In this document: positions 22,500-58,317 of the stretch, piece by piece | Layout: every line of letters begins with the position of its first letter | Numbering within the stretch: the first letter of the stretch is position 1 | Assembly: GCA_033764855.1 (NCBI GenBank) | Contig: JANRIP010000005.1 | Coordinates: 102,240 to 166,239, forward strand | Direction of reading: 5' to 3' | Source of the DNA: Hyphomonadaceae bacterium | GTDB lineage: Bacteria > Pseudomonadota > Alphaproteobacteria > Caulobacterales > Aquidulcibacteraceae | Length of the DNA stretch: 64,000 nucleotides | Program-made: the position numbers and the translations under genes | Notes under the pieces: generated by a model | Database searches by the model: none | What the model saw: the letters and a program-made list of their open reading frames with translations, nothing else | Told to the model about the DNA's origin: nothing

Positions 22500-22620
22500 C
22501 CATTTCCGTCATTCCGGGGCATGCGCAGCATGAACCCGGAATCCAGGGGATGACAGAGCATATCGGCTGCCCCTGGATTCCGGGTTCGACCTAGCGGTCG
22601 CCCCGGAATGACGGAAATGG
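22500..22620. repeat. family-A nested-palindrome element (A4)
   Basis: 20-bp perfect outer IR ccatttccgtcattccgggg / ccccggaatgacggaaatgg, 18-bp perfect inner IR gaacccggaatccagggg / cccctggattccgggttc, arm hairpins catgc-gca-gcatg and cgacc-tagc-ggtcg. Confidence 0.9.
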
Positions 22621-22632
22621 TAGCGTCGAGCT

Positions 22633-22953
22633 ATGTCCCGCTACGAAGCCATTGCGGTTTACATCATGGCGAATGAGCGCAATGGCACGCTCTATATTGG
22701 CGTGACCAGCAATTTGCCACGACGCGCTCAGCAACATCGCGAAGGGCTCGTTGAAGGCTTCACGCAGAAGTACGGCTGCAAGCTACTTGTTTGGTTTGAA
22801 CAACGCCAAGATATGCACACCGCGCTCGCACGCGAGAAAGAACTCAAGAAGTGGCGCCGCGACTGGAAGCTCGCCCTGATCGAGAAATCAAACCCACAAT
22901 GGCGGGATCTCGCGGAGGACTTCCTAAATCCCCCGCCGCCAACTTTTCTCTGA
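22633..22953 (+). CDS. GIY-YIG nuclease family protein
   Basis: 106 aa with YIMANERNGTLYIGVTSNL...H..G...F..KYG...LVWFE...E..LKKWRRDWK. Bracketed within 12 and 2 bp by elements A4 and A5. Confidence 0.8.
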   Translation: MSRYEAIAVYIMANERNGTLYIGVTSNLPRRAQQHREGLVEGFTQKYGCKLLVWFEQRQDMHTALAREKELKKWRRDWKLALIEKSNPQWRDLAEDFLNPPPPTFL

Positions 22954-22955
22954 TC

Positions 22956-23063
22956 CGTCGTTCCGGGGCGACCGGAGGTCGAACCCGGAATCCAGGGGCC
23001 AGCAAGTACCGCGCTCTCGTCCCTTGGATTCCGGGTTCATGCTCCGCATGCCCCGGAGTGACG
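22956..23063. repeat. family-A nested-palindrome element (A5, inverted relative to A4)
   Basis: Outer IR cgtcgttccgggg / ccccggagtgacg, inner IR gaacccggaatccagggg / cccttggattccgggttc. The arm hairpins cgacc-gga-ggtcg and catgc-tcc-gcatg occur in the opposite order to A4. Confidence 0.85.
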
Positions 23064-27081: not shown

Positions 27082-28266
27082 TTGTTCGATATGACGCCAA
27101 CCGCCCCTGTCAGCCTTGACGCCATTATCCGGCAGCTTGAAAGCGCCATCGCCGGCGCGCTGATGCTGAACCCTGAGCAAGCGGCGCTGCGCGCTGGGAT
27201 CAGCTTCCTGATCGTTGGCGGCGCAGCGATTTTGATGACCATTATTCGCTTGGCGTTGCGCGCCGTGGTTTCGCGCGTGACGCCGGAGGACGAGCAGCAG
27301 AGCAAAAAGCGCGACGCCAGCCGCAAGGTTGGCGGGCTGGCCTTGGCTTTGGTTCGTCTCGCCATTGTGGTGGGCGCGATCTACTTCTTGCTGCGCGTTT
27401 GGGGCCTGGATTTCGGGCTGTTCACGGGCGGCGCGGTCGGGGCCGCGCTCGCGGGCATTGGCCGCGCACTGCTCATCATCATTATCGCCATTGCGGCGGT
27501 GGAGGTTTCCGGCTTCGCCATCTTGCGCAGCCTGCACCGTGTCGCGCGCTCGGCGCGCGATCCGCGCCGGGCGGCGCAAGTGCGTACGCTGGCGCCGGTG
27601 CTGCGCGGGGCGGTGCAGACCATTATCGTGGTGCTGGCGGCGATGATGTTTCTGTCGCAGCTCGGCGTTGAGGTTGGCCCGCTTGTGGCTGGCGCCGGTA
27701 TTGTCGGGCTTGCTGTCGGCTTCGGCGCGCAAACCATCGTCAAAGACTTTCTCACCGGTATCTTTCTCATTGTCGAAGACATCGTCTCGATCGGCGATGT
27801 GGTGCAGATCGGCGAGTTTGGCGGCGTCGTTGAGGAGATGTCGCTGCGCACCATCAGGCTGCGCGACTTTGACGGTACGCTGCACATTTTCCCGTACAGC
27901 GAAGCGCAAGTGATCCATAATCGGACCAAGACGTTTTCGTACGCCGTGTTCGATCTCTCAGTCGATTATTCCGCCGACATTCCGCGCGCCATTGAGGTGA
28001 TGAAGGAAACCGGCGCCGAACTGCGCGCCGACAGTGAGTTCGCGCCGCTGCTGCTCGACAGCATCGAGGTTGTCGGCGTCGATAAGCTGGCCGATTCCGC
28101 GGTCGTGCTCAAGGCGCGGATCAAGACGCTCCCGGGCAAGCAATGGACCGTGAAGCGCGAATATTTGAAGCGCGTCAAAGCGGCGTTCGACGCGGCGGGC
28201 GTCATCATCCCGTTCCCCACGCTGAAGCTGATCCCCGCGGACGGCCCGGTGCGCGAGGAAGGCTGA
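27082..28266 (+). CDS. mechanosensitive ion channel (MscS family)
   Basis: Several TM helices, then the MscS beta domain (DFLTGIFLIVEDIVSIGDVV...G.VEE...R.T.LR...G). TTG start with GGAGA 7 nt upstream; alternative ATG at 27091. Confidence 0.85.
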   Translation: MFDMTPTAPVSLDAIIRQLESAIAGALMLNPEQAALRAGISFLIVGGAAILMTIIRLALRAVVSRVTPEDEQQSKKRDASRKVGGLALALVRLAIVVGAIYFLLRVWGLDFGLFTGGAVGAALAGIGRALLIIIIAIAAVEVSGFAILRSLHRVARSARDPRRAAQVRTLAPVLRGAVQTIIVVLAAMMFLSQLGVEVGPLVAGAGIVGLAVGFGAQTIVKDFLTGIFLIVEDIVSIGDVVQIGEFGGVVEEMSLRTIRLRDFDGTLHIFPYSEAQVIHNRTKTFSYAVFDLSVDYSADIPRAIEVMKETGAELRADSEFAPLLLDSIEVVGVDKLADSAVVLKARIKTLPGKQWTVKREYLKRVKAAFDAAGVIIPFPTLKLIPADGPVREEG

Positions 28267-28304
28267 AGGCCCAAGTTTGCCAAGCGCCGCGCTTGGGTTT
28301 ACAT

Positions 28305-28402
28305 GATCGGCACCCGGGGAGCCGCGCCGAAGCGGCTGAGATTGGGCTGACGCCCTGACCCGTTGAACCTGATCCGGGTCATGCCGGCGAAGGGAGAGAC
28401 CC
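28305..28402 (+). promoter_or_regulatory. TPP (THI-box) riboswitch
   Basis: Conserved elements ggggagc...gctgaga...ccctgacccgttgaacctgatccgggtcatgccggcgaaggga directly upstream of thiC. Boundaries approximate. Confidence 0.85.
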
Positions 28403-28482
28403 ATGACGCCAGCCAACACCAATTGCGCGCGCCGCGGCCAGACCGCCGCTTCCGCGCGCGCATCTCGTCCCATCCAGGATAA

Positions 28483-30387
<1,905 letters not shown>

Positions 30388-30418
30388 AATCGGGCATGCA
30401 GGTTGCCCTTATTGGGAG

Positions 30419-31354
30419 ATGGCTAATTTGCCGGAGGTGCAAAAAGTAGAGAACTTGGCAGACTTGGCTCCGCCAGAGTGGAAAGATTCAGCGTCTGGAT
30501 TCAATTATGCGCGGTTTCGCTTTTTTCCGTCGGGTATTGCTGTCGACTCCGCCGAGGTGGAGGTACTGAAGTCCCTCTTTCCGCTTTTGGGTTTGATTTC
30601 CACCCACCCAGTCCGCTTTACACTTGTGAAAACTGACGACGGGACCAAATTTCGAGCGGTTTCGACGCAAATATGCCACCGCGACGGCCAGCGTCATGTG
30701 CTGACAGAATTTGGCGAAAAGGAAATTCCAAGCGGGGCCTATTTGGTGGTGTTTAGCCCGGTCCCGATTTTACCAGATAGTCGATCCAACGACGGAAAAG
30801 CGGAGCAGGCCATTAGCGTCTGCCGCGGCCTCGCAACAGCCGCACTCGGCCATACGGCAGCGGAAAAGGCGATCTACACTTGCGACTCTTACTTACGCGA
30901 GGTTCGCACGACTATCTCCGCCGACACGATCGAGAATTTCATAAGCGTAGAGCGCTACTGCTACCTTGATACCGAGACGCTGCGAGATATCTCGACCGCG
31001 ATGCGCACGCACCTTAAACCGGATGTCAGAGAGCGGTTTGAAACTGCTTTGATGCTTCTTGGCAGCGCAACAGCCGTAATCGACTCAACCATACGCCTGA
31101 TGCATACGTGGATCGCGTTAGAAGTTGCATCGGGCTCTCGTGGGAAAGCTGAAGAGGCGGTAAAGCTCACAACGAGCGGCGACGGGACACCATACCAACG
31201 CATCAAAGATGCTCGCGACGACCTGTTTCACAGGGGCAAGCGGCCAACGCTTTCAAGCAGTGATGAGCGGATTGTGCACGCCGCTCTGATCAACGTCTTG
31301 CTCGGCTACTACCGCAAGCAAACCAAAACAGTTGGCTCGATCTCAGAGACGTAG
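30419..31354 (+). CDS. hypothetical protein with C-terminal HEPN-like motif
   Basis: 311-aa ORF in a visibly AT-richer segment, with no family I recognise. The C-terminal helical region contains WIALEVASG...RIKDARDDLFHRG (Rx4H). GGGAG abuts the ATG, so the exact start is uncertain. Confidence 0.6.
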   Translation: MANLPEVQKVENLADLAPPEWKDSASGFNYARFRFFPSGIAVDSAEVEVLKSLFPLLGLISTHPVRFTLVKTDDGTKFRAVSTQICHRDGQRHVLTEFGEKEIPSGAYLVVFSPVPILPDSRSNDGKAEQAISVCRGLATAALGHTAAEKAIYTCDSYLREVRTTISADTIENFISVERYCYLDTETLRDISTAMRTHLKPDVRERFETALMLLGSATAVIDSTIRLMHTWIALEVASGSRGKAEEAVKLTTSGDGTPYQRIKDARDDLFHRGKRPTLSSSDERIVHAALINVLLGYYRKQTKTVGSISET

Positions 31355-31356
31355 CT

Positions 31357-31516
31357 CCCTTCTCCCCTTGAGGGGAGAAGGTGGCCCGGAGGGCCGGATG
31401 AGGGGATCACGGTGGTCGCGGAATGGGGCGACGTCACCAGCGCTAAAGTTGGAAACAAAGAACTGCCCCTCATCCGTCGGCTTCGCCGACACCTTCTCCC
31501 CTCAAGGGGAGAAGGG
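31357..31516. repeat. family-C composite palindromic element (C1)
   Basis: Terminal hairpins cccttctcccc-ttga-ggggagaagg and ccttctcccc-tcaa-ggggagaaggg, with internal IR atgagggg / cccctcat. Begins 3 bp after the stop of the preceding gene. Confidence 0.85.
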
Positions 31517-31572
31517 TTGGACCGGCGCTCACCCGGCGCTGCGCGCCACCCTCTCCCCTCAAAGGGAGAGGG
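31517..31572. repeat. family-C half element
   Basis: ctcacccggcgctgcgcgccaccctctcccc-tcaaa-gggagaggg resembles the right half of C elements. Confidence 0.6.
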
Positions 31573-31588
31573 ACAATAAGCTGGAAGC

Positions 31589-31939
31589 ATGAAGCGCAAT
31601 CCGGACAGCGTCCGTCGCGCGCGTGAGAGCCGCGCGGAGATGACCAATGCGGAGACCAAGCTTTGGTCGCTGCTTCGGGATCGTCGGCTGATCAGCCGCA
31701 AATTCCGCCGCCAGCACACGATTGGAATTTACGTTGTCGACTTCGCCTGCCCGGCGCTCCATCTCGTGATTGAGGTGGATGGGCCGTCGCACGACGCGGA
31801 AGACCAGAAGGTGTTTGACGCGCAGCGTACCGAATACCTCCAACGCGAAGGCTGGCGCGTGATCCGGTTCAAGAATGACGAAGTGTATCAGTCGTTCGGA
31901 TACGTGCAGGAGCGCATCATAGCCGAATGCGGCGAGTGA
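31589..31939 (+). CDS. DUF559 (Vsr-like endonuclease fold) protein
   Basis: 116 aa with MTNAETKLWSLLR...FRRQH.IG.YVVDFACP...LVIEVDG.SH...D..R...L...GWRVIRF.N.EV, typical of DUF559. Confidence 0.85.
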   Translation: MKRNPDSVRRARESRAEMTNAETKLWSLLRDRRLISRKFRRQHTIGIYVVDFACPALHLVIEVDGPSHDAEDQKVFDAQRTEYLQREGWRVIRFKNDEVYQSFGYVQERIIAECGE

Positions 31940-31946
31940 TAAGCAT

Positions 31947-32100
31947 CCCCTCTCCCCTTGAGGGGAGAGGGTGGCGCGAAGCGCCGGGTGAGGGGCTGAC
32001 GGTGTCGGCAGAATAAAGCTCGATCTCGTTCGCTTGGCGCCAGATACGCGCCCCTCATCCGCCCGCTTCGCGGGCACCTTCTCCCCTCAAGGGGAGAAGG
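31947..32100. repeat. family-C composite palindromic element (C2)
   Basis: cccctctcccc-ttga-ggggagaggg ... gtgagggg / cccctcat ... ccttctcccc-tcaa-ggggagaagg. Starts 8 bp after the DUF559 stop. Confidence 0.85.
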
Positions 32101-32254
32101 AAAAAGCATAGCGTGACACCCACCAACCCCGCTCCAAGCGCGGATACACCCCGCCCTATCCCGCAACCTCCCGCGCCAAACCCCAGCAGAATCCGCCCAC
32201 CCGCGCCAATCTATCCGACTGGCCCCGCGCCCAGCGCACACTCAGCGCTCCCAC

Positions 32255-32767
32255 ATGCACACGCCCCGCACCCACCGTCCCAAACCAAAGCCCGCCCGGA
32301 TCACATGCAGACTCGCACCCTGGGCGCGGCTTTGGCTTTCGTGCATTGCGGCGCTCCTCTCCACCGCCGCCTGCGTGCTGCCGCCCGCGCTGCAACGGCG
32401 CCTGCCCGTGCTCGATCTGCCGCTCAAAGTGCTGGGCCGGCACGTCGCGCGGCTCATCCTCTTATGCGCGTATGAGCGCGCCGCGCTGCCGACAAGCGAG
32501 CGCGCCCTAGAAAGCCTGCGCGCAGCGGGCGCGATGAGCGCGCTGTTGCGCACCGGCGTGCAGCGCCATCTCGTCAACGCTGACGGCGCGTTCGACCTCG
32601 CCGCCATCGCGCGCACCTGCGCCAATCCCGAGCCGGCAATTGCCGACATGGCCGCCGCGCTCGAACGCGGCCTCACCCGCCGCAATCCGATCCTGCCGCG
32701 CGCCGCGTGCGAACCTCTGCGCACGCTTGCGCCGCGTGCGCTCGCGCATGCGTGCGATACGTCCTGA
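32255..32767 (+). CDS. hypothetical protein (possible lipoprotein)
   Basis: Third-position G/C bias favours this frame over the Arg/Ser-rich antisense ORF. It has a hydrophobic segment WLSCIAALLSTAAC, no recognisable family and an uncertain start. Lies between C2 and C3. Confidence 0.35.
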   Translation: MHTPRTHRPKPKPARITCRLAPWARLWLSCIAALLSTAACVLPPALQRRLPVLDLPLKVLGRHVARLILLCAYERAALPTSERALESLRAAGAMSALLRTGVQRHLVNADGAFDLAAIARTCANPEPAIADMAAALERGLTRRNPILPRAACEPLRTLAPRALAHACDTS

Positions 32768-32838
32768 CGGCAATCGACAATCGACAATCATATCCACGCC
32801 GAGTCCCACGACTCCGGCGGCGCTCGCGTGTGCCTCAA

Positions 32839-32962
32839 CCCCCTTCTCCCTCGCGGAGAAGGGGGCAGGGGGATGAGGGGCGTTCAATCAAGCCGGCGCC
32901 TGCGTGTTTCCCTCGCCCCTCACCCCGCCGCTACGCGGCGACCCTCTCCGCAAGGGAGAGGG
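32839..32962. repeat. family-C composite palindromic element (C3, diverged)
   Basis: cccccttctccc-tcgc-ggagaaggggg ... gatgagggg / cccctcac ... ccctctcc-gcaa-gggagaggg. Abuts the 3' end of the ABC ATPase gene. Confidence 0.75.
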
Positions 32963-32973
32963 TTGAGCCGGAG

Positions 32974-33738
32974 CTACTCGAACGTCGCCACAAACGCCCC
33001 ATCCAAGTCCCTCACGCGCGCGCGGCGGCCATAGGCGGCTTGCAGCGTCTCTTCCGTCAGCGCTGCGCGCGGGGCGCCTTGGGCGATGACGCAACCTTCG
33101 CGCAGCAGCACGATGCGATCGGCGGCGCGGGCGGCGAGTGCAACGTCGTGCGTTGAAAAGAGCGCGCCGCCGCCCCGGCCCGCATGCGCCCGCACTATGT
33201 CGGCGACGCCCAGCGCTTGGGCGGGATCGAGCCCCGCTGTGGGTTCATCCAGCAGCAAGAGCGGCGCGGCTTGCGCCAGCGCGCGAGCCAAATGCGCGCG
33301 CGCTTTCTCGCCGCCGGAAATTTCGTCCATGCGCCGCGCGCGCAAGGCGGTGAGATCGCAGGCGTCGATGGCGGAATCGACAGCGGCGCGGTCGGTCATG
33401 CTGAGCGTATCGGGCGCGGCGCCATAAGCGTAGCGCCCAAGCGCGACCAGACGCTCCACGCTCACCGGCCAGATCGATTGCGGGCGCTGCGGCAGATAAG
33501 CGGCGCGCAAGGCGCGTTCGCGCGCTGAGAGTTCGCGCGGATTTCTCTGCAACAATTTCGCCTCGCCGCTCGAAGCGATCAGCCCGAGCGATGCGCGAAT
33601 AAGTGAGGTTTTGCCCGCACCGTTCGGCCCTAGCAACGCCACCACTTCGCCGGGCGCGATGGTGAGCGAAACAGAGTCCACCACGCGCGCGCCGCGCAGC
33701 GTGACGCTGAGATTGGTGAGCTCGAGCAGCGCGCTCAT
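32974..33738 (-). CDS. ABC transporter ATP-binding protein (FecE/BtuD type)
   Basis: Walker A GPNGAGKTS, signature ISGGEKAR, Walker B LLLLDEP. Last gene of a riboswitch-controlled operon. Confidence 0.9.
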   Translation of the reverse strand: MSALLELTNLSVTLRGARVVDSVSLTIAPGEVVALLGPNGAGKTSLIRASLGLIASSGEAKLLQRNPRELSARERALRAAYLPQRPQSIWPVSVERLVALGRYAYGAAPDTLSMTDRAAVDSAIDACDLTALRARRMDEISGGEKARAHLARALAQAAPLLLLDEPTAGLDPAQALGVADIVRAHAGRGGGALFSTHDVALAARAADRIVLLREGCVIAQGAPRAALTEETLQAAYGRRARVRDLDGAFVATFE

Positions 33739-34691
33739 GCTTCGCCTCCGCGCGAAGCCAGGCGCGCGGCGATCAGCGCAAACACCGGCCCGCCAATCAA
33801 AGCGGCGGCGACGCCGAGTTTCAGCTCCGTATCCGTAGGCAACACGCGCACCAGCAGGTCAGCCAGCGCCAGCATGGCCCCGCCCGCCAGCGCGCTCGGC
33901 AACAAGATGCGCGCCGGATCGTGGCCGGCGAACACGCGCACCAGATGCGGCGCCGCGATGCCGACAAAGCCGATCACGCCGGCCACCGCCGTCGCTCCGC
34001 CCACGCAAGCGGCGGCGCCGAACACGACCAGCCAGCGCGTGTGCGAAAGCTCTGCACCAATGGCGGCGGCTGCCTCTTCGCCCAAAGTCAACGCCTGCAA
34101 GCCGCGCGCGGCGGCAAGGATTAGAGCCGCGCCAAGCAATAGCAGCGCGCCAACCAAGGCCGCATCTTCCAGCGAACGCCCTTCGACGGAGCCGAGCGTC
34201 CAGTTCACTAGATCCGCCAGCGCGCCGGGATTGGGCGCGAGGTTCAAGGTCAGTGCGATCAGGCCGCCAGCGCTGGAGGAAAGTCCCACGCCAATCAGCA
34301 CCAGGCTCGCCGGTCCGCGCGCAGCCGCGCCGAGCACAGTGATGAGCAGCGAAGCGCCGAGCGCGAACAGCACCGCCATGAGCGGCGCGAAGCTCGCAAA
34401 GCCAAACGCGAACGCGAGCACGGCGCCAAGCGCCGCAAAGCCAGAAAGGCCAAGCACGCCGGAATCCGCGAGCGGATTGCGCAGCAGACCTTGCAAAGCC
34501 GCGCCGGAGAGGCCGAGCGCTGCGCCGACCAGCCAAGCGGTGAGCACGCGCGGGAAGCGGATTTCCCAGACGATGGCGTGCGTCATCGCATCATTGTGCA
34601 GCGGATTGACCGAAACGGGGCCAAGCCAAAGCGACGCCGCAATCGCGCCGAGGCTCAGTAGTGCGAGCGTAAGAGTAAGCCGCCAGCTCAT
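33735..34691 (-). CDS. FecCD/BtuC family ABC permease
   Basis: Start trimmed to MSWRLTLTLALLSLG (ATG 34689-34691), giving ATGA overlap with the upstream gene. Typical FecCD sequence (RFPRVL, LSGAALQGLLRNPLAD, IGFVGI.APH). Confidence 0.85.
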   Translation of the reverse strand: MSWRLTLTLALLSLGAIAASLWLGPVSVNPLHNDAMTHAIVWEIRFPRVLTAWLVGAALGLSGAALQGLLRNPLADSGVLGLSGFAALGAVLAFAFGFASFAPLMAVLFALGASLLITVLGAAARGPASLVLIGVGLSSSAGGLIALTLNLAPNPGALADLVNWTLGSVEGRSLEDAALVGALLLLGAALILAAARGLQALTLGEEAAAAIGAELSHTRWLVVFGAAACVGGATAVAGVIGFVGIAAPHLVRVFAGHDPARILLPSALAGGAMLALADLLVRVLPTDTELKLGVAAALIGGPVFALIAARLASRGGEA

Positions 34692-35497
34692 GGCGCCAGC
34701 AGTGCAGCTTGCACCGCTTCGGCTGCGTCGATAGCGAACCAAGCTTCGCAGGATATGGCCCCGGCCGGCAACGCCAAGGTGCGCGCGTTCGCCAGCGCTC
34801 GGCGCACCACCGGATGGCGCGAGGGCGACCATGCATCCATGCGCGTGCGGCCGGTGCCGAAGAAGCCGGTGGCGATCAGGGCGGGCGGGGTTGTGACAAG
34901 GCGCTCGAGCGGCAGCACGGTCCAGCTCGCGCCGCTCCATGAATTGCGCCCGCCCGCTTGCACGATCACATCGTGCATCAGCACGCCGGAGCCTGCGACG
35001 GCGCCCGCTGAAGAGAGATACATCACCGCCGGGCGCTCTGCAGGTGCGCGCGCGTGCAAGCGCGCGAGGCGGAGGTCGAGGTCAGCGGCTAGCGCGGCGC
35101 CGCGTTCGGCCTGACCGATGGCGGCGGCGGCGTGCAACAGGTCAGCGCGCGCGGCGGCGAAGCTGGGGGCATCGCCGACTTGCAGCACCGGCACGCCAAA
35201 GCGGCCATAGACTTCGGCCGCATCCCACGGCCCGCCCCAATTGCGCACGATCAGGTCAGGGCGAAGCGCCAGCACATCCTCCAGCGAGCCGCGCGTTTGG
35301 CGGATGCCGACAGCGCGATCGCGGAAATAAGAGTCATCACGCTGCGCGCCGATAGAGAGCGCGGCAATCTGCGCGCGATCGGCCAAAGCGAGCACAAATT
35401 GGTCTGCGCAATAATCCAGCGACACGATGCGCTGGGGCGCCGCTTCGGCGCGCGATGCAAACAGAAGCGCCAGAGCGCAAACGAGAAACCGGCCCAC
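34688..35497 (-). CDS. periplasmic substrate-binding protein (BtuF/cluster A type)
   Basis: 269 aa with signal peptide, RIVSLDYCADQFVLAL and PDLIV motifs. GTG start with GGAGGA upstream. First gene after the cobalamin riboswitch. Confidence 0.8.
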   Translation of the reverse strand: MGRFLVCALALLFASRAEAAPQRIVSLDYCADQFVLALADRAQIAALSIGAQRDDSYFRDRAVGIRQTRGSLEDVLALRPDLIVRNWGGPWDAAEVYGRFGVPVLQVGDAPSFAAARADLLHAAAAIGQAERGAALAADLDLRLARLHARAPAERPAVMYLSSAGAVAGSGVLMHDVIVQAGGRNSWSGASWTVLPLERLVTTPPALIATGFFGTGRTRMDAWSPSRHPVVRRALANARTLALPAGAISCEAWFAIDAAEAVQAALLAP

Positions 35498-35524
35498 TTA
35501 TCCTCCAGCGGTCCCATCCCGGAC

Positions 35525-35700
35525 CCAAGGATCGTTTGCCGGCAGGTCTTCTGGCTTCGCGGGTCAGCGCTTTGATCCGCCTTCCCGGATTGCTCCAGTG
35601 GCTGGTTGGATCAGAGCTCGCCGCTTACAGCTGCGGGCGCAGCCGCGGAATTGCACCGCGTTCCCTCGTGCTCCTTACGGAGACCGACATGGGCTCTCTT
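35525..35700 (-). promoter_or_regulatory. cobalamin riboswitch
   Basis: The minus strand reads ...agggaacgcggtgcaattccgcggctg...gccactgg (B12 box, plus-strand ccagtggc at 35595-35602)...gggaaggc...agaagacctgccggc. Boundaries approximate. Confidence 0.85.
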
Positions 35701-35735
35701 AAAGGCGCGGCGGCGGCGGCGCAATCGAACGCGCC

Positions 35736-36092
35736 CTAAAGGATTTCGCGCACGCGCTCTTTCGGCCGGGCCAGCAGCGCGCCTTTGGCGCTGACGACGA
35801 AGGGACGCTCGACCAGGACCGGATGCTCGATCATGGCCTCGATCAGCTTGGCGTCGCTGATTTTGGAATCGAGCAAGCCTAGCTCCTCGGCCTCTTTGGC
35901 CCTGTTGCGCAGCGCTTGGCGCGCGGTGAGGCCGGCGTCGGCGAACAGCTTTTTGAGCTGCGGCTTGGTCCATCCGGCCTTGAGATACTCGACCACGACA
36001 GGCTTAGCCCCGCTGGCCACGATCAGCTCCAGCACTTGGCGGGAGGTGGAGCATTTCGGGTTGTGATAGATGGTGACGCTCTTAGCCATCAC
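35736..36092 (-). CDS. ArsC/Spx family protein (arsenate reductase-like, YffB type)
   Basis: 118 aa with IYHNPKCSTSR motif. Start directly abuts the stop of the upstream GS-like gene. Confidence 0.8.
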   Translation of the reverse strand: MMAKSVTIYHNPKCSTSRQVLELIVASGAKPVVVEYLKAGWTKPQLKKLFADAGLTARQALRNRAKEAEELGLLDSKISDAKLIEAMIEHPVLVERPFVVSAKGALLARPKERVREIL

Positions 36093-37445
36093 TCACACCT
36101 TCAAGAGCAGATGGTCCCGTTCCCATGACGAGATCACGCCTTCGAACGCGTTCAGCTCGTGCGCTTTGATGCGCTGGAACGCGTCGCAAAAATGTGCGCC
36201 TAAAAGATCGATGACAGGCTGGCATTCCTTGAAGCGGCCCAGAGCCTCATCGAGGGTGCGCGGCAAAGTGCGCGCCCATTTATAGGCGCTGCCTTGCACC
36301 ATTTCCTTCGGCTCAATCTTATCGCGAATGCCGATATAACCGCAGATCAACATGGCGGAAATGGCGAGATAGGGATTCGCGTCAGCGCCCGGCAAACGGT
36401 TTTCGATGCGCCGATTGGTCGCGTCCGAAATCGGCACACGCAGACCGCAGGAGCGGTTATCGTAACCCCATTGCAGATTGATCGGCGCGGACCAATCCGG
36501 ACGCATGCGCCGGAACGAATTGACGTTCGGCGCAAAGAGCGGCGCGACCTCGCCCAGATATTCCTGCAGACCGCCGACAAAGTGGCGAAACATCTCGGAA
36601 TTGTCGCCATTATCGGTGGCGAACAGATTGGCGCCCTTCTTGTCGACGACCGAGGCGTGCAGGTGCATTGCGCTGCCCGGCTGGTGCTCCATCGGCTTGG
36701 CCATGAATGTCGCATAGACGCCGTGCTTCAGCGCCACCTGACGCACGATGCGCTTGAACACCAGAACTTGGTCCGAAACGTGGACCGGATCGCCATGGTT
36801 GAAATTGATCTCGAGCTGCGCGGCGCCGCTCTCGTGAATCATGGTGTCGAGATGAAGCGAGGCCGCCTCGGCGTGCTCATAAATCGTCTCGATCAGATCT
36901 TCGTATTCCGTAATGGCTTCGAGACCATAAGGCTGGGGCGAAGTTTCGTGCCGGCCTGAGCGGCCTTTCGGCGGCTCGAGCGGAAGGTCTGGATCGGTGT
37001 TGACCTGAGTGAGATAGAATTCCAGCTCTGGCGCAACGACCGGCCGCAATCCTTCCTTCTGATAAAGCTCCACCACGCGCTTCAACACATAACGCGGCGC
37101 GACGTCGAACGGTTCGCCGCTGGTATGGTATGCGTCGGCGAACACAAACGCTGTCGGCGTTTTGTAGCCTGGGGCGACGCAGATGGTTTGAAGGTCCGGG
37201 CGCAGCACAACATCGGGATCCGACATCGCGATGGCTTCGTCCGCATCGTCGGAATATTCGCCTGTGACTGTCAGCGAGTAAATGCTGGACGGAATCCGCA
37301 GACTCCCATCGCGCTCGCTCTGCAGGAATTTTTGCGCTGGGAAGACCTTGCCACGCACGACACCGTTAAGGTCAGGGACGAGACATTCGACCTCGCCAAT
37401 GCCGCGCTCGTTAATCCAACTCGCAAAAGATTTCACTTCAGACAT
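36093..37445 (-). CDS. glutamine synthetase family protein (gamma-glutamyl-polyamine synthetase-like)
   Basis: Type I GS catalytic-domain motifs (KPMEHQPGSAMHLHASV, NSFRR, DNRSCGLRV, ENRLPGADANPYL). ATG at 37443-37445 preferred over the GTG at 37454. Confidence 0.88.
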   Translation of the reverse strand: MSEVKSFASWINERGIGEVECLVPDLNGVVRGKVFPAQKFLQSERDGSLRIPSSIYSLTVTGEYSDDADEAIAMSDPDVVLRPDLQTICVAPGYKTPTAFVFADAYHTSGEPFDVAPRYVLKRVVELYQKEGLRPVVAPELEFYLTQVNTDPDLPLEPPKGRSGRHETSPQPYGLEAITEYEDLIETIYEHAEAASLHLDTMIHESGAAQLEINFNHGDPVHVSDQVLVFKRIVRQVALKHGVYATFMAKPMEHQPGSAMHLHASVVDKKGANLFATDNGDNSEMFRHFVGGLQEYLGEVAPLFAPNVNSFRRMRPDWSAPINLQWGYDNRSCGLRVPISDATNRRIENRLPGADANPYLAISAMLICGYIGIRDKIEPKEMVQGSAYKWARTLPRTLDEALGRFKECQPVIDLLGAHFCDAFQRIKAHELNAFEGVISSWERDHLLLKV

Positions 37446-57817: not shown

Positions 57818-58317
57818 CACCCATTCCCGGGGCGCCGCGCAGCGGCGAGCCCGGGACCCATAAACTGGCTTGTCTAAAGATTGCCATTTGCTGCGCCCCG
57901 CGCACAATTCCGCAATGCGCACTGACGAAAGCCGCCTGACCGCGACCTACATGCTCGCCAACCGCAAACACGGCACGCTTTATCTCGGTTCAGCGCTCGA
58001 CCTGGTTCAGCGCATGAGCGAACACAAATCCGGTCTCGGCTCCCAGTTCGTCGCGAAATATGGGCTGGATCGGCTTGTTTGGTTTGAGCCATTTATGCTC
58101 GTCTCAGAGGCGCGCGACCGCGAATACCAACTGAAGAAATGGCGGCGAGACTGGAAGATCAATCTCATCGAGCATGAAAATCCAGACTGGGATGACCTCT
58201 ATCCCACGCTTACAGGCGGAACGCCGATGCGCTCTCGCTGGCGTCCAGGCTAGACTTCAAAACAAACGTGTTTATGGGTCCCGGACTTGGCGCTTTGCGC
58301 CAATCCGGGAATGGGTG
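57818..58317. mobile_element. family-B nested-palindrome element carrying a GIY-YIG gene (B1, putative mobile unit)
   Basis: Outer IR cacccattcccgg (57818-57830) / ccgggaatgggtg (58305-58317). Inner IR ccgggacccataaac (57851-57865) / gtttatgggtcccgg (58270-58284). Arm hairpins cgccgc-gca-gcggcg and ttggcgc-ttt-gcgccaa. The gene occupies the loop. Confidence 0.7.
57915..58253 (+). CDS. GIY-YIG nuclease family protein
   Basis: Start at MRTDESRLTATYMLANRKHGTLYLG. Shares GTLY[IL]G, KYG, LVWFE, LKKWRRDWK, LIE, NP.W.DL with the 22633..22953 protein. Confidence 0.8.
   Translation: MRTDESRLTATYMLANRKHGTLYLGSALDLVQRMSEHKSGLGSQFVAKYGLDRLVWFEPFMLVSEARDREYQLKKWRRDWKINLIEHENPDWDDLYPTLTGGTPMRSRWRPG

Follow-up and report, generated by a model that had tools for sequence, protein, structure and literature searches.

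A DUF559 nuclease gene and its BoxC-like hairpin repeats between thiC and a B12-transporter operon

Why should a small nuclease gene be wrapped in palindromic repeats, and does the pairing mean anything for either partner? The question is raised by a 1.6-kb stretch (31358–32963) of the 64-kb window analysed here, that is, the whole 64,000-nt piece of a Hyphomonadaceae genome whose source is a drinking-water metagenome. In this stretch, between thiC and a B12-transporter operon, lie a gene of the DUF559 family and seven copies of one 45–50-nt unit, which we call the arm. Six arms form three inward-facing inverted pairs (doublets C1, C2 and C3, together the C elements) and one stands alone, and every spacer of the 1.6 kb contains a doublet. 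We favor the reading that the stretch is a DUF559 nuclease cassette with a repeat family of its own, placed in a variable island that reaches from thiC to the B12-transporter operon, and that the nuclease acts on the arms. The chances that this reading is right as a whole seem to us about even; that the nuclease would nick the arms is what we infer from the arrangement of gene and repeats.

The gene and its repeats across bacteria

The DUF559 gene (31589–31939, plus strand) is intact and encodes a 116-aa protein with the Vsr fold, a PD-(D/E)xK nuclease. The protein matches Pfam PF04480 with E = 5e-35 (120.1 bits against a cut-off of 20.6, profile positions 5–108 of 109) and, by sequence, the DUF559 structure in PDB entry 3HRL with E = 1.4e-18. 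Its AlphaFold model has a predicted local distance difference test score (pLDDT) of 86.9 and is matched by Foldseek to 3HRL (template modelling score, TM, 0.70/0.86), to I-Bth0305I and to Vsr itself (1CW0, 1VSR). Residues D51, E62, D64, H68 and Q73 are invariant across 21 homologues and, judged by the fold, are putatively catalytic; because all of them are present in the window protein, the gene looks functional. The window protein is 44% identical to Escherichia coli YcjD, and the best matches in the searched genome contig collection reach 68% identity for DUF559 and 84% for ThiC. The family as a whole is large, with 24,690 clusters at 50% identity when E ≤ 1e-3 is required and 9,752 at E ≤ 1e-10. 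Some close DUF559 relatives lie within much longer predicted proteins (P0137, 1214 aa; P0244, 1019 aa; P0257, 986 aa), and one protein of 377 aa (P0133) contains three DUF559 stretches; these may be in-frame insertions or fusions. The window gene starts 16 nt past the solo arm, a3, and ends 8 nt ahead of a4, the first arm of C2. Both this spacing and the assignment to DUF559 had been given in an earlier note on this DNA and are borne out, and the coordinates that it gave for the gene and the C elements agree with ours exactly or to within 1–2 nt; what it called a "half element" is our solo arm.

The pairing of gene and repeat extends to other bacteria. We collected 82 DUF559 loci, selected solely by protein similarity (43–68% identity), which span Alpha-, Beta-, Gamma- and Zetaproteobacteria, Planctomycetota, Chloroflexota and others. 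Pyrimidine-stem hairpins lie within 250 bp of the gene at 71 of them, on both sides in 51 cases and on one side in 20, whereas 11 have a hairpin on neither side. The density of these hairpins is 3.70/kb beside the gene versus 0.10/kb more than 400 bp away at the same loci, and 0.039/kb in a control of 1.07 Mb around thiC in 80 other genomes; the enrichment is thus ~37-fold over distal DNA and ~95-fold over the control loci. The sole DUF559 gene in the thiC control loci itself adjoins two pyrimidine-stem hairpins. The earlier note had considered that the arms might be so abundant that a flanked DUF559 gene is expected by chance, or that DUF559 copies elsewhere might never lie near the repeat. 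The first is ruled out by densities of 0.04–0.10/kb away from DUF559 and 3.7/kb beside it, the second by the 71 homologues that carry hairpins. The link between gene and repeat is real, specific and conserved across phyla.

The layout of these loci follows a pattern. Where both arms passed strict criteria, 21 loci face inward (hairpin, connector and tail, then the gene, then tail, connector and hairpin), 7 have both arms in the same direction, and 5, the window included, hold the gene between the outer hairpins of two doublets. The usual cassette therefore consists of an arm, the gene and an inverted arm, and measures ~475 bp in relatives. Sizes fall into two classes: 27 of 31 gene-bearing elements measure 417–550 bp (the outliers 657, 677, 893 and 3313 bp), and gene-less doublets, which have the same arm types, measure 96–172 bp in 23 of 24 cases and 257 bp in the other. 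Since relatives usually hold the gene inside one element, the C elements correspond to the compact DUF559 cassette without its gene. A blind set of loci, found by the arm pattern or by thiC, agrees with this layout. In this set, three of three inward-facing arm pairs spaced 301–700 nt enclose a DUF559 gene (E = 1e-28 to 1e-33); among the matches listed there is no other compact cargo, and pairs at other spacings enclose ordinary chromosomal genes.

The scan by arm pattern also returned at least 38 inward-facing doublets and at least 22 back-to-back pairs with tails outward, at gaps of ≤130 nt. At one orthologous site in four metagenome-assembled genomes (L008, L009, L011 and L013), the inner gene-proximal arms, together with ~85 nt of filler, are variably present; the left side is a plain arm-leader-gene arrangement in L008 and a full doublet in L011. 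A duplicated flank in L008 was considered as a long target duplication and rejected: the contig is short and its end repeats 44 nt of internal flank, maybe as an assembly artefact, and we therefore treated it as unreliable.

Furthermore, the arm follows the protein. The mean edit distance between hairpins is 1.05 for proteins at least 80% identical and rises to 3.6 at 65–80%, 6.1 at 55–65% and 7.2 at 45–55% identity. Similar DUF559 proteins in different genomes have arms in common. By contrast, five of six pairs of paralogues within one genome (52–69% identity) have different arms, at a distance of 4–8, and the sixth pair, with 83% identity, has arms in common. Arm sequence tracks protein similarity, not host genome; the accidental landing of a host-specific repeat would give the opposite pattern and is therefore disfavored. 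Identical stems (GGGGAGARGG ... GGRTGAGGGG) occur, among the matches listed, in Rhizobium, Agrobacterium, Mesorhizobium, Brevundimonas and Legionella, and also in Acidobacteriota, Planctomycetota, Verrucomicrobiota and Armatimonadota.

The build of the arm and its kinship with BoxC

An arm has three parts. The first is a hairpin of 10–13 bp, and of 10–11 bp in the window arms, with only pyrimidines in its 5′ strand and only purines in its 3′ strand. The second is a mini-hairpin of 5–6 bp with a GNA triloop, the connector, which is present in six of the seven window arms. The third is an unpaired G-rich tail, which mirrors the purine strand instead of complementing it. All seven arms share one fold as single-stranded DNA (z-scores −2.3 to −4.9 by ViennaRNA, a folding that covers the two hairpins only), and a third G-rich block mirroring the purine stem is present in seven of seven. 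Within the 64-kb window the hairpin pattern has five matches, all in 31358–32100, with 0.00 expected from shuffles; a looser scan for pyrimidine-stem hairpins finds eight, seven of which lie in 31358–32963.

In C1 (31357–31516), the left arm a1 (31358–31405, plus strand) has the hairpin CCTTCTCCCC-TTGA-GGGGAGAAGG, the mini-hairpin GGCCC-GGA-GGGCC and the tail GGATGAGGGG, the mirror of its purine stem; as single-stranded DNA it is predicted to fold into two hairpins and a free tail (−15.8 kcal/mol, z = −3.0). The right arm a2 (31466–31515, minus strand) is an inverted copy of a1, with 100% complementarity over the terminal 27 nt and a different mini-hairpin stem (GTCGGC-GAA-GCCGAC). The solo arm a3 (31528–31572, minus strand) has a stem of the CCCTCTCCCC type and a tail truncated to GGGTGAG. 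Its sister is a4 (31948–31995, plus strand), the left arm of C2 (31947–32100), and no other two arms of the region are as much alike, with 96% complementarity across 45 nt (31948–31992 in a4). Arm a4 has the stem GGGGAGAGGG and the tail GGGTGAGGGG; it departs from a1 in the stem and, at the mirrored position, in the tail, so that the two covary. The right arm of C2, a5 (32051–32100, minus strand), is of the CCTTCTCCCC type and 92% identical to a2. The third doublet, C3 (32839–32963), is more diverged than the other C elements. Its left arm a6 (32839–32880, plus strand) is BoxC-like, with a second loop of 2 nt (CCCCCTTCTCC-CTCGC-GGAGAAGGGGG-CA-GGGGGATGAGG), and its right arm a7 (32916–32963, minus strand) has the stem GGGAGAGGGT, the mini-hairpin CGCCGC-GTA-GCGGCG and the tail GGGGTGAGGGG.

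The mirror relation between stem and tail points to a third strand. The pairs are GGGGAGAAGG with GGATGAGGGG in a1, a2 and a5, GGGGAGAGGG with GGGTGAGGGG in a4, and GGAGAAGGGGG with GGGGGATGAGG in a6; when read antiparallel, they yield G·G:C, A·A:T and T·A:T triplets and no others, as an intrastrand triplex of the purine motif requires. Because the tail mirrors the purine strand, it is predicted to be able to fold back onto the hairpin as a purine-motif intrastrand triplex. An internal inverted pair, atgagggg/cccctcat, had been noticed before in the C elements; the pair is present, but its role is corrected here to that of the mirror-repeat third strand of a triplex motif. The relation holds well beyond the window. 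In 207 hairpins from 83 loci (the 82 fetched loci and the window), a mirror tail with at most one mismatch accompanies 186, versus 27 when the flanks are shuffled. A direct-repeat relation of tail to stem was tried and rejected, as it fits 110 of the 207 hairpins versus 186 for the mirror relation. Tails score 9.53 of 10 against their own stem and 6.73 of 10 against other stems, and 14 stem classes covary with their tails. The connector is conserved in structure and free in sequence: a connector hairpin of at least 4 bp is found in 98 of 114 arms versus 15 of 114 shuffled ones, with 37 different stem sequences and GNA loops in 84 of the 98. Judged from these sequences, it should be very stable.

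This build recalls the E. coli repeat known as BoxC, PIT or TMECO, with the consensus CCCTCNCCC-N3-6-GGGNGAGGG-N3-GGGNGAGGG (Holder et al. 2015, PMC4666352); BoxC and PIT elements go back to Bergler 1992 and Hoyne 2000, as cited in that paper. The consensus stem (CCCTCNCCC ... GGGNGAGGG, with a loop of 3–6 nt) is exact in three window arms, a3, a4 and a7, of which a4 reads CCCTCTCCCC-TTGA-GGGGAGAGGG ... GGGTGAGGGG, and the stems of a1, a2 and a5 (CCTTCTCCCC / GGGGAGAAGG) are one position off. Like the arms, the E. coli repeat is intergenic, occurs singly or in inverted pairs and is tied to locally variable DNA. The two differ in the second loop, which is 12–20 nt long with a GNA-triloop mini-hairpin of its own in six of the seven window arms and 3 nt long in TMECO; only a6 has a short one. 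The published ITxF finder allowed second loops of 1–6 nt, and long-loop arms would therefore have been missed. By its sequence, then, the window repeat is best described as a long-loop variant of BoxC/TMECO, not as TMECO proper. Of the description of these elements in the earlier note, as a "family C", the elements and their inverted pair stand; the repeat is not private to this genome, since its stems match those published for BoxC/PIT/TMECO.

What has been learned of the E. coli repeat bears on the arm. A TMECO oligonucleotide forms a triplex in vitro, and variability is raised around the motif (PMC4666352); the E. coli sequence is the only one for which a triplex in vitro has been published (PMC4666352). 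No partner protein for TMECO is named in that paper; its authors found no mobility function nearby, as they state, and mention neither ycjD nor any endonuclease. In E. coli K-12 the end of ycjD, a DUF559 gene, is a degenerate copy of the motif, and a perfect BoxC lies ~165 nt downstream; this BoxC copy has the tail GGGTGAGGGG, as a4 does. In E. coli O157:H7 MB9-1 (L288, 3265–6264), a block of TetR and resistance-nodulation-division (RND) efflux genes starts where similarity to K-12 ends. This efflux island lies upstream of fabI, near the K-12 BoxC position, at the end of the contiguous fabI-ycjD stretch. In the literature we found no paper that connects DUF559 with these repeats, apart from a single table row about predicted inversions.

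The island between thiC and the B12-transporter operon

Upstream of the arms lie a thiamine pyrophosphate (TPP) riboswitch, thiC and a 311-codon orphan gene; downstream of C2 follow a 170-codon gene, then C3, and then a cobalamin riboswitch with a btuD/C/F-type operon after it. The two riboswitches are all that an Rfam scan of 28000–37000 returned. ThiC is closest to that of Terricaulis-like Caulobacterales (83–84%). A Logan contig from a close relative (L166, 82–94% nucleotide identity), found through the 170-aa gene, shows how fluid the interval is. It is without the cassette and all three doublets, and it keeps the thiC end and the block of the 170-aa gene and btuDCF. Between these blocks it has a 260-aa open reading frame (ORF), a DUF4236 gene and one decayed solo arm, and a 182-aa ORF occupies the site where the window has C3. 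Cassette and doublets were therefore gained or lost since the strains split, and, to judge from this comparison of sequences, the interval is a variable island, which agrees with the variability around TMECO in Holder et al. (PMC4666352). Comparing this interval in relatives had been proposed as a means to date the insertions. The nearest species-level genomes (L086 and L087) are too rearranged for dating by synteny; the closer L166 shows the absence of cassette and doublets.

The two uncharacterised genes on either side of the cassette have different histories. The 311-codon orphan gene (30419–31354) has a GC content of 0.54 versus 0.62–0.69 in its neighbors, and of 0.61 at third codon positions; it is absent in L166, where an unrelated 260-aa ORF lies on the other strand, and it is part of the same variable island. 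The 170-codon gene (32255–32767, plus strand) belongs to a small uncharacterised family and to the setting of the module, not to the module itself. There are 12 homologues over the full length (55–86% identity), its GC contents by codon position (0.73/0.60/0.81) are like those of its neighbors, and its region is 90.5% identical in nucleotides to L166, where no C element flanks it. Listed in the earlier note as a further ORF enclosed by the repeats, it turns out to be a real gene and not cargo but a resident, because in the close relative it adjoins btuDCF in the absence of C elements. The C-rich tract ahead of it (32101–32254, plus strand) is strand-asymmetric (C 76, A 37, G 27, T 14) and 90% conserved in L166, and is therefore part of the leader of the 170-codon gene, not of the repeats.

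The metagenome suggests that the arm is repeated elsewhere. The source assembly breaks at arms, and the summed depth over a1 is ~1100 versus ~60–70 in the flanks; among the contigs of matching depth, several have arms. Hence the arm occurs in multiple copies, some 15–19 genome equivalents, to which other organisms may contribute, and it is this metagenome depth that points to its dispersal in the window's own genome. A contig of 5399 nt from run X1 has a depth of 71, equal to that of the window genome; its match to 31700–31750 contains 9 differences, and it is joined to an arm on the opposite strand. The contig probably represents a second paralogue of DUF559, beside an arm, in the same organism.

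The window holds two other nuclease genes within repeats, both of the GIY-YIG type: one at 22633–22953 (module 22507–23063) and one at 57870–58253 (module 57818–58317). Both lie between inverted repeats of 53–56 nt of the CGTCATTCCGG type, another family than the arms, and with DUF559 they bring the nuclease-repeat modules of the window to three. DUF559 had been described as the third repeat-wrapped nuclease gene here, with another fold and another repeat family, and this is correct. The broader proposal of a general nuclease plus hairpin-repeat module is supported as a genomic association by the 71 of 82 homologues; its GIY-YIG half, however, is already published as Ssn/SRM (PMC11893778).

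Competing explanations and what the link may mean

Two known partnerships suggest how gene and arms might work together. Ssn nucleases with their NTS/SRM hairpin repeats (Chenal et al. 2025, PMC11893778, which does not mention DUF559) resemble the present system in that a small gene for a single-domain nuclease has on either side a hairpin repeat that is dispersed in the genome. The enzyme there is of the GIY-YIG class (cd10448-type) and here of the unrelated PD-(D/E)xK/Vsr fold, the hairpin is of the CGTCATTCC type there and a triplex-type arm here, and activity on the repeat, its cleavage, was shown there whereas DUF559 is known here from sequence association. In the repetitive extragenic palindromic (REP) system of REPINs and RAYTs (PMC3116915, PMC3333891), inverted copies of a short palindromic repeat likewise flank an enzyme gene, intergenic DNA contains scattered inverted doublets that lack a gene (REPINs, BIMEs), and one or few genes go with many repeats. 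The RAYT is an HUH/Y1 transposase and DUF559 a Vsr-fold nuclease, and REPs have neither the mirror-repeat tail nor the connector hairpin that are both present in the arm; no Y1 (IS200/IS605-like) transposase is found among the ORFs of 29000–35500. The C elements also resemble miniature inverted-repeat transposable elements in their size (~125–160 bp), terminal inverted repeats, intergenic position and longer coding relative with the same ends. They differ in having folded motifs as ends, no consistent target-site duplication and no transposase from any known family.

In the reading that we favor, two inverted arms around the gene would make the compact gene-bearing form, and two around 50–60 nt of filler the gene-less doublets, that is, the C elements. 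The DUF559 protein, as a Vsr-fold nicking enzyme, would recognise the folded arm in single-stranded or extruded DNA and would nick there or close by. Through repair or recombination, such nicks would homogenise the arms, carry copies of them to new intergenic sites and render the DNA around them variable. The partnership would thus work like RAYT/REPIN or Ssn/SRM, with an unrelated enzyme fold.

Several observations weigh against this reading. For no DUF559 protein is activity, binding or a cut site on such repeats known. Seen from the repeat, the association is weak: only 1 of 103 pattern-matched arms, among the matches listed, has a DUF559 gene within 300 nt, a figure expected for a system of few genes and many repeats and equally for a passenger gene. 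Across complete E. coli genomes, the BoxC related to that near ycjD is present in 5148 of 5426 and ycjD in 3378 of 5426; over such a span of time at least, the repeats therefore persist for longer than the gene. (By megablast, ~38% of complete E. coli genomes have no detectable ycjD.) The window itself, like L011 and L025, has the minority layout with the gene between doublets, which a simple model of autonomous and miniature forms fails to explain. Its copies are old, C1 and C2 being 83–92% alike, and no empty-site or excision junction appears in four metagenome runs. No clear or consistent target-site duplication is found either: the 6-nt AAGCAT on either side of C2 is the sole candidate, and there is none at C1, at C3 or at the cassettes of relatives. 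Finally, co-inheritance alone could explain the correlation between arm and protein.

A rival reading takes the arms for self-standing, structure-prone DNA, either moved by some other enzyme or simply recombinogenic, and DUF559 for a selfish homing-type cassette that inserts into arms or next to them and has no action on the dispersed copies. This is the alternative that we take most seriously, although we hold it to be rather unlikely. Some 99% of arms, among the matches listed, are solo or in gene-less doublets, BoxC is kept in E. coli genomes without ycjD, and an island was inserted next to BoxC in O157:H7; the close relative of the window has other genes and a decayed solo arm in the variable island. 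The fold, too, is close to that of a homing endonuclease, I-Bth0305I (PDB 3R3P), which is the second-best structural match (Foldseek E = 1.5e-4, TM 0.62–0.66) and serves a selfish element. The gene for that enzyme, however, lies within a host gene, in an intron or intein, and the enzyme has an extra DNA-binding region, whereas the DUF559 gene is free-standing between repeats. A passenger would also hardly be the sole compact cargo between inward-facing arms, as DUF559 is in three of three cases of the blind test among the matches listed, or travel in cassettes of such uniform size. Moreover, the arms of paralogous cassettes in one genome differ and follow the clade of the protein, unlike a generic landing pad.

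A second possibility is that DUF559 is a Vsr-like enzyme that nicks at T:G mismatches, as proposed for VsrA, and that the arms are cis elements of the gene, whether stabilisers of mRNA ends, insulators or an autoregulatory operator. We consider this improbable. The fold is indeed that of Vsr and of Caulobacter VsrA (CCNA_02930, DUF559), an alphaproteobacterial protein that causes DNA damage in vivo (PMC12907096), and a short transcript could be protected by a hairpin at each end. The substrate of Vsr is the T:G mismatch, and Vsr is linked to a cytosine methyltransferase; for VsrA, there is no discussion of repeats (PMC12907096). No cytosine-5 methyltransferase gene is found among the neighbors here (thiC, the 311-aa orphan, the 170-aa gene and btuDCF); VsrA, however, is functionally tied to a methyltransferase encoded elsewhere in its genome (PMC12907096), and the missing linkage therefore does not exclude a Vsr function. 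Against a purely cis role, 31200–33100 is without promoter-like or terminator-like sites, and such a role explains neither the many gene-less copies nor the conserved mirror tail and connector of solo arms.

That the gene merely lies in a repeat-rich spacer, as the doublet in every spacer of the 1.6 kb might suggest, or that its 45-nt inverted repeats form a recombinase-driven invertible switch, is very improbable given the ~37-fold and ~95-fold enrichment across phyla, the lack of a recombinase gene nearby and the lack of any inversion junction from the DUF559 locus in the reads of the four metagenome runs, where apparent joints between opposite strands come from the diverged paralogous contig (9 mismatches in 51 nt).

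Beyond this locus, we tentatively propose that DUF559 proteins are dedicated partners of BoxC/PIT/TMECO-type repeats, each clade nicking its own folded arm and so maintaining and spreading arms and doublets; as a general statement this is possible but somewhat doubtful. BoxC/PIT/TMECO has been known since the 1990s, so far without a function or a protein partner, and DUF559 ranks among the large families whose function is unknown. The physical link between the two provides a testable hypothesis for both. If the nuclease reads the folded hairpin-triplex, it would be a structure- and sequence-specific nicking enzyme and a possible tool, as Ssn is for single-stranded DNA, and the family would be the first one aimed at an intrastrand DNA triplex. 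If the proposal is true, the partnership would explain one source of local genome variability and would add to RAYT/REPIN and Ssn/SRM a third bacterial nuclease-repeat symbiosis of independent evolutionary origin.

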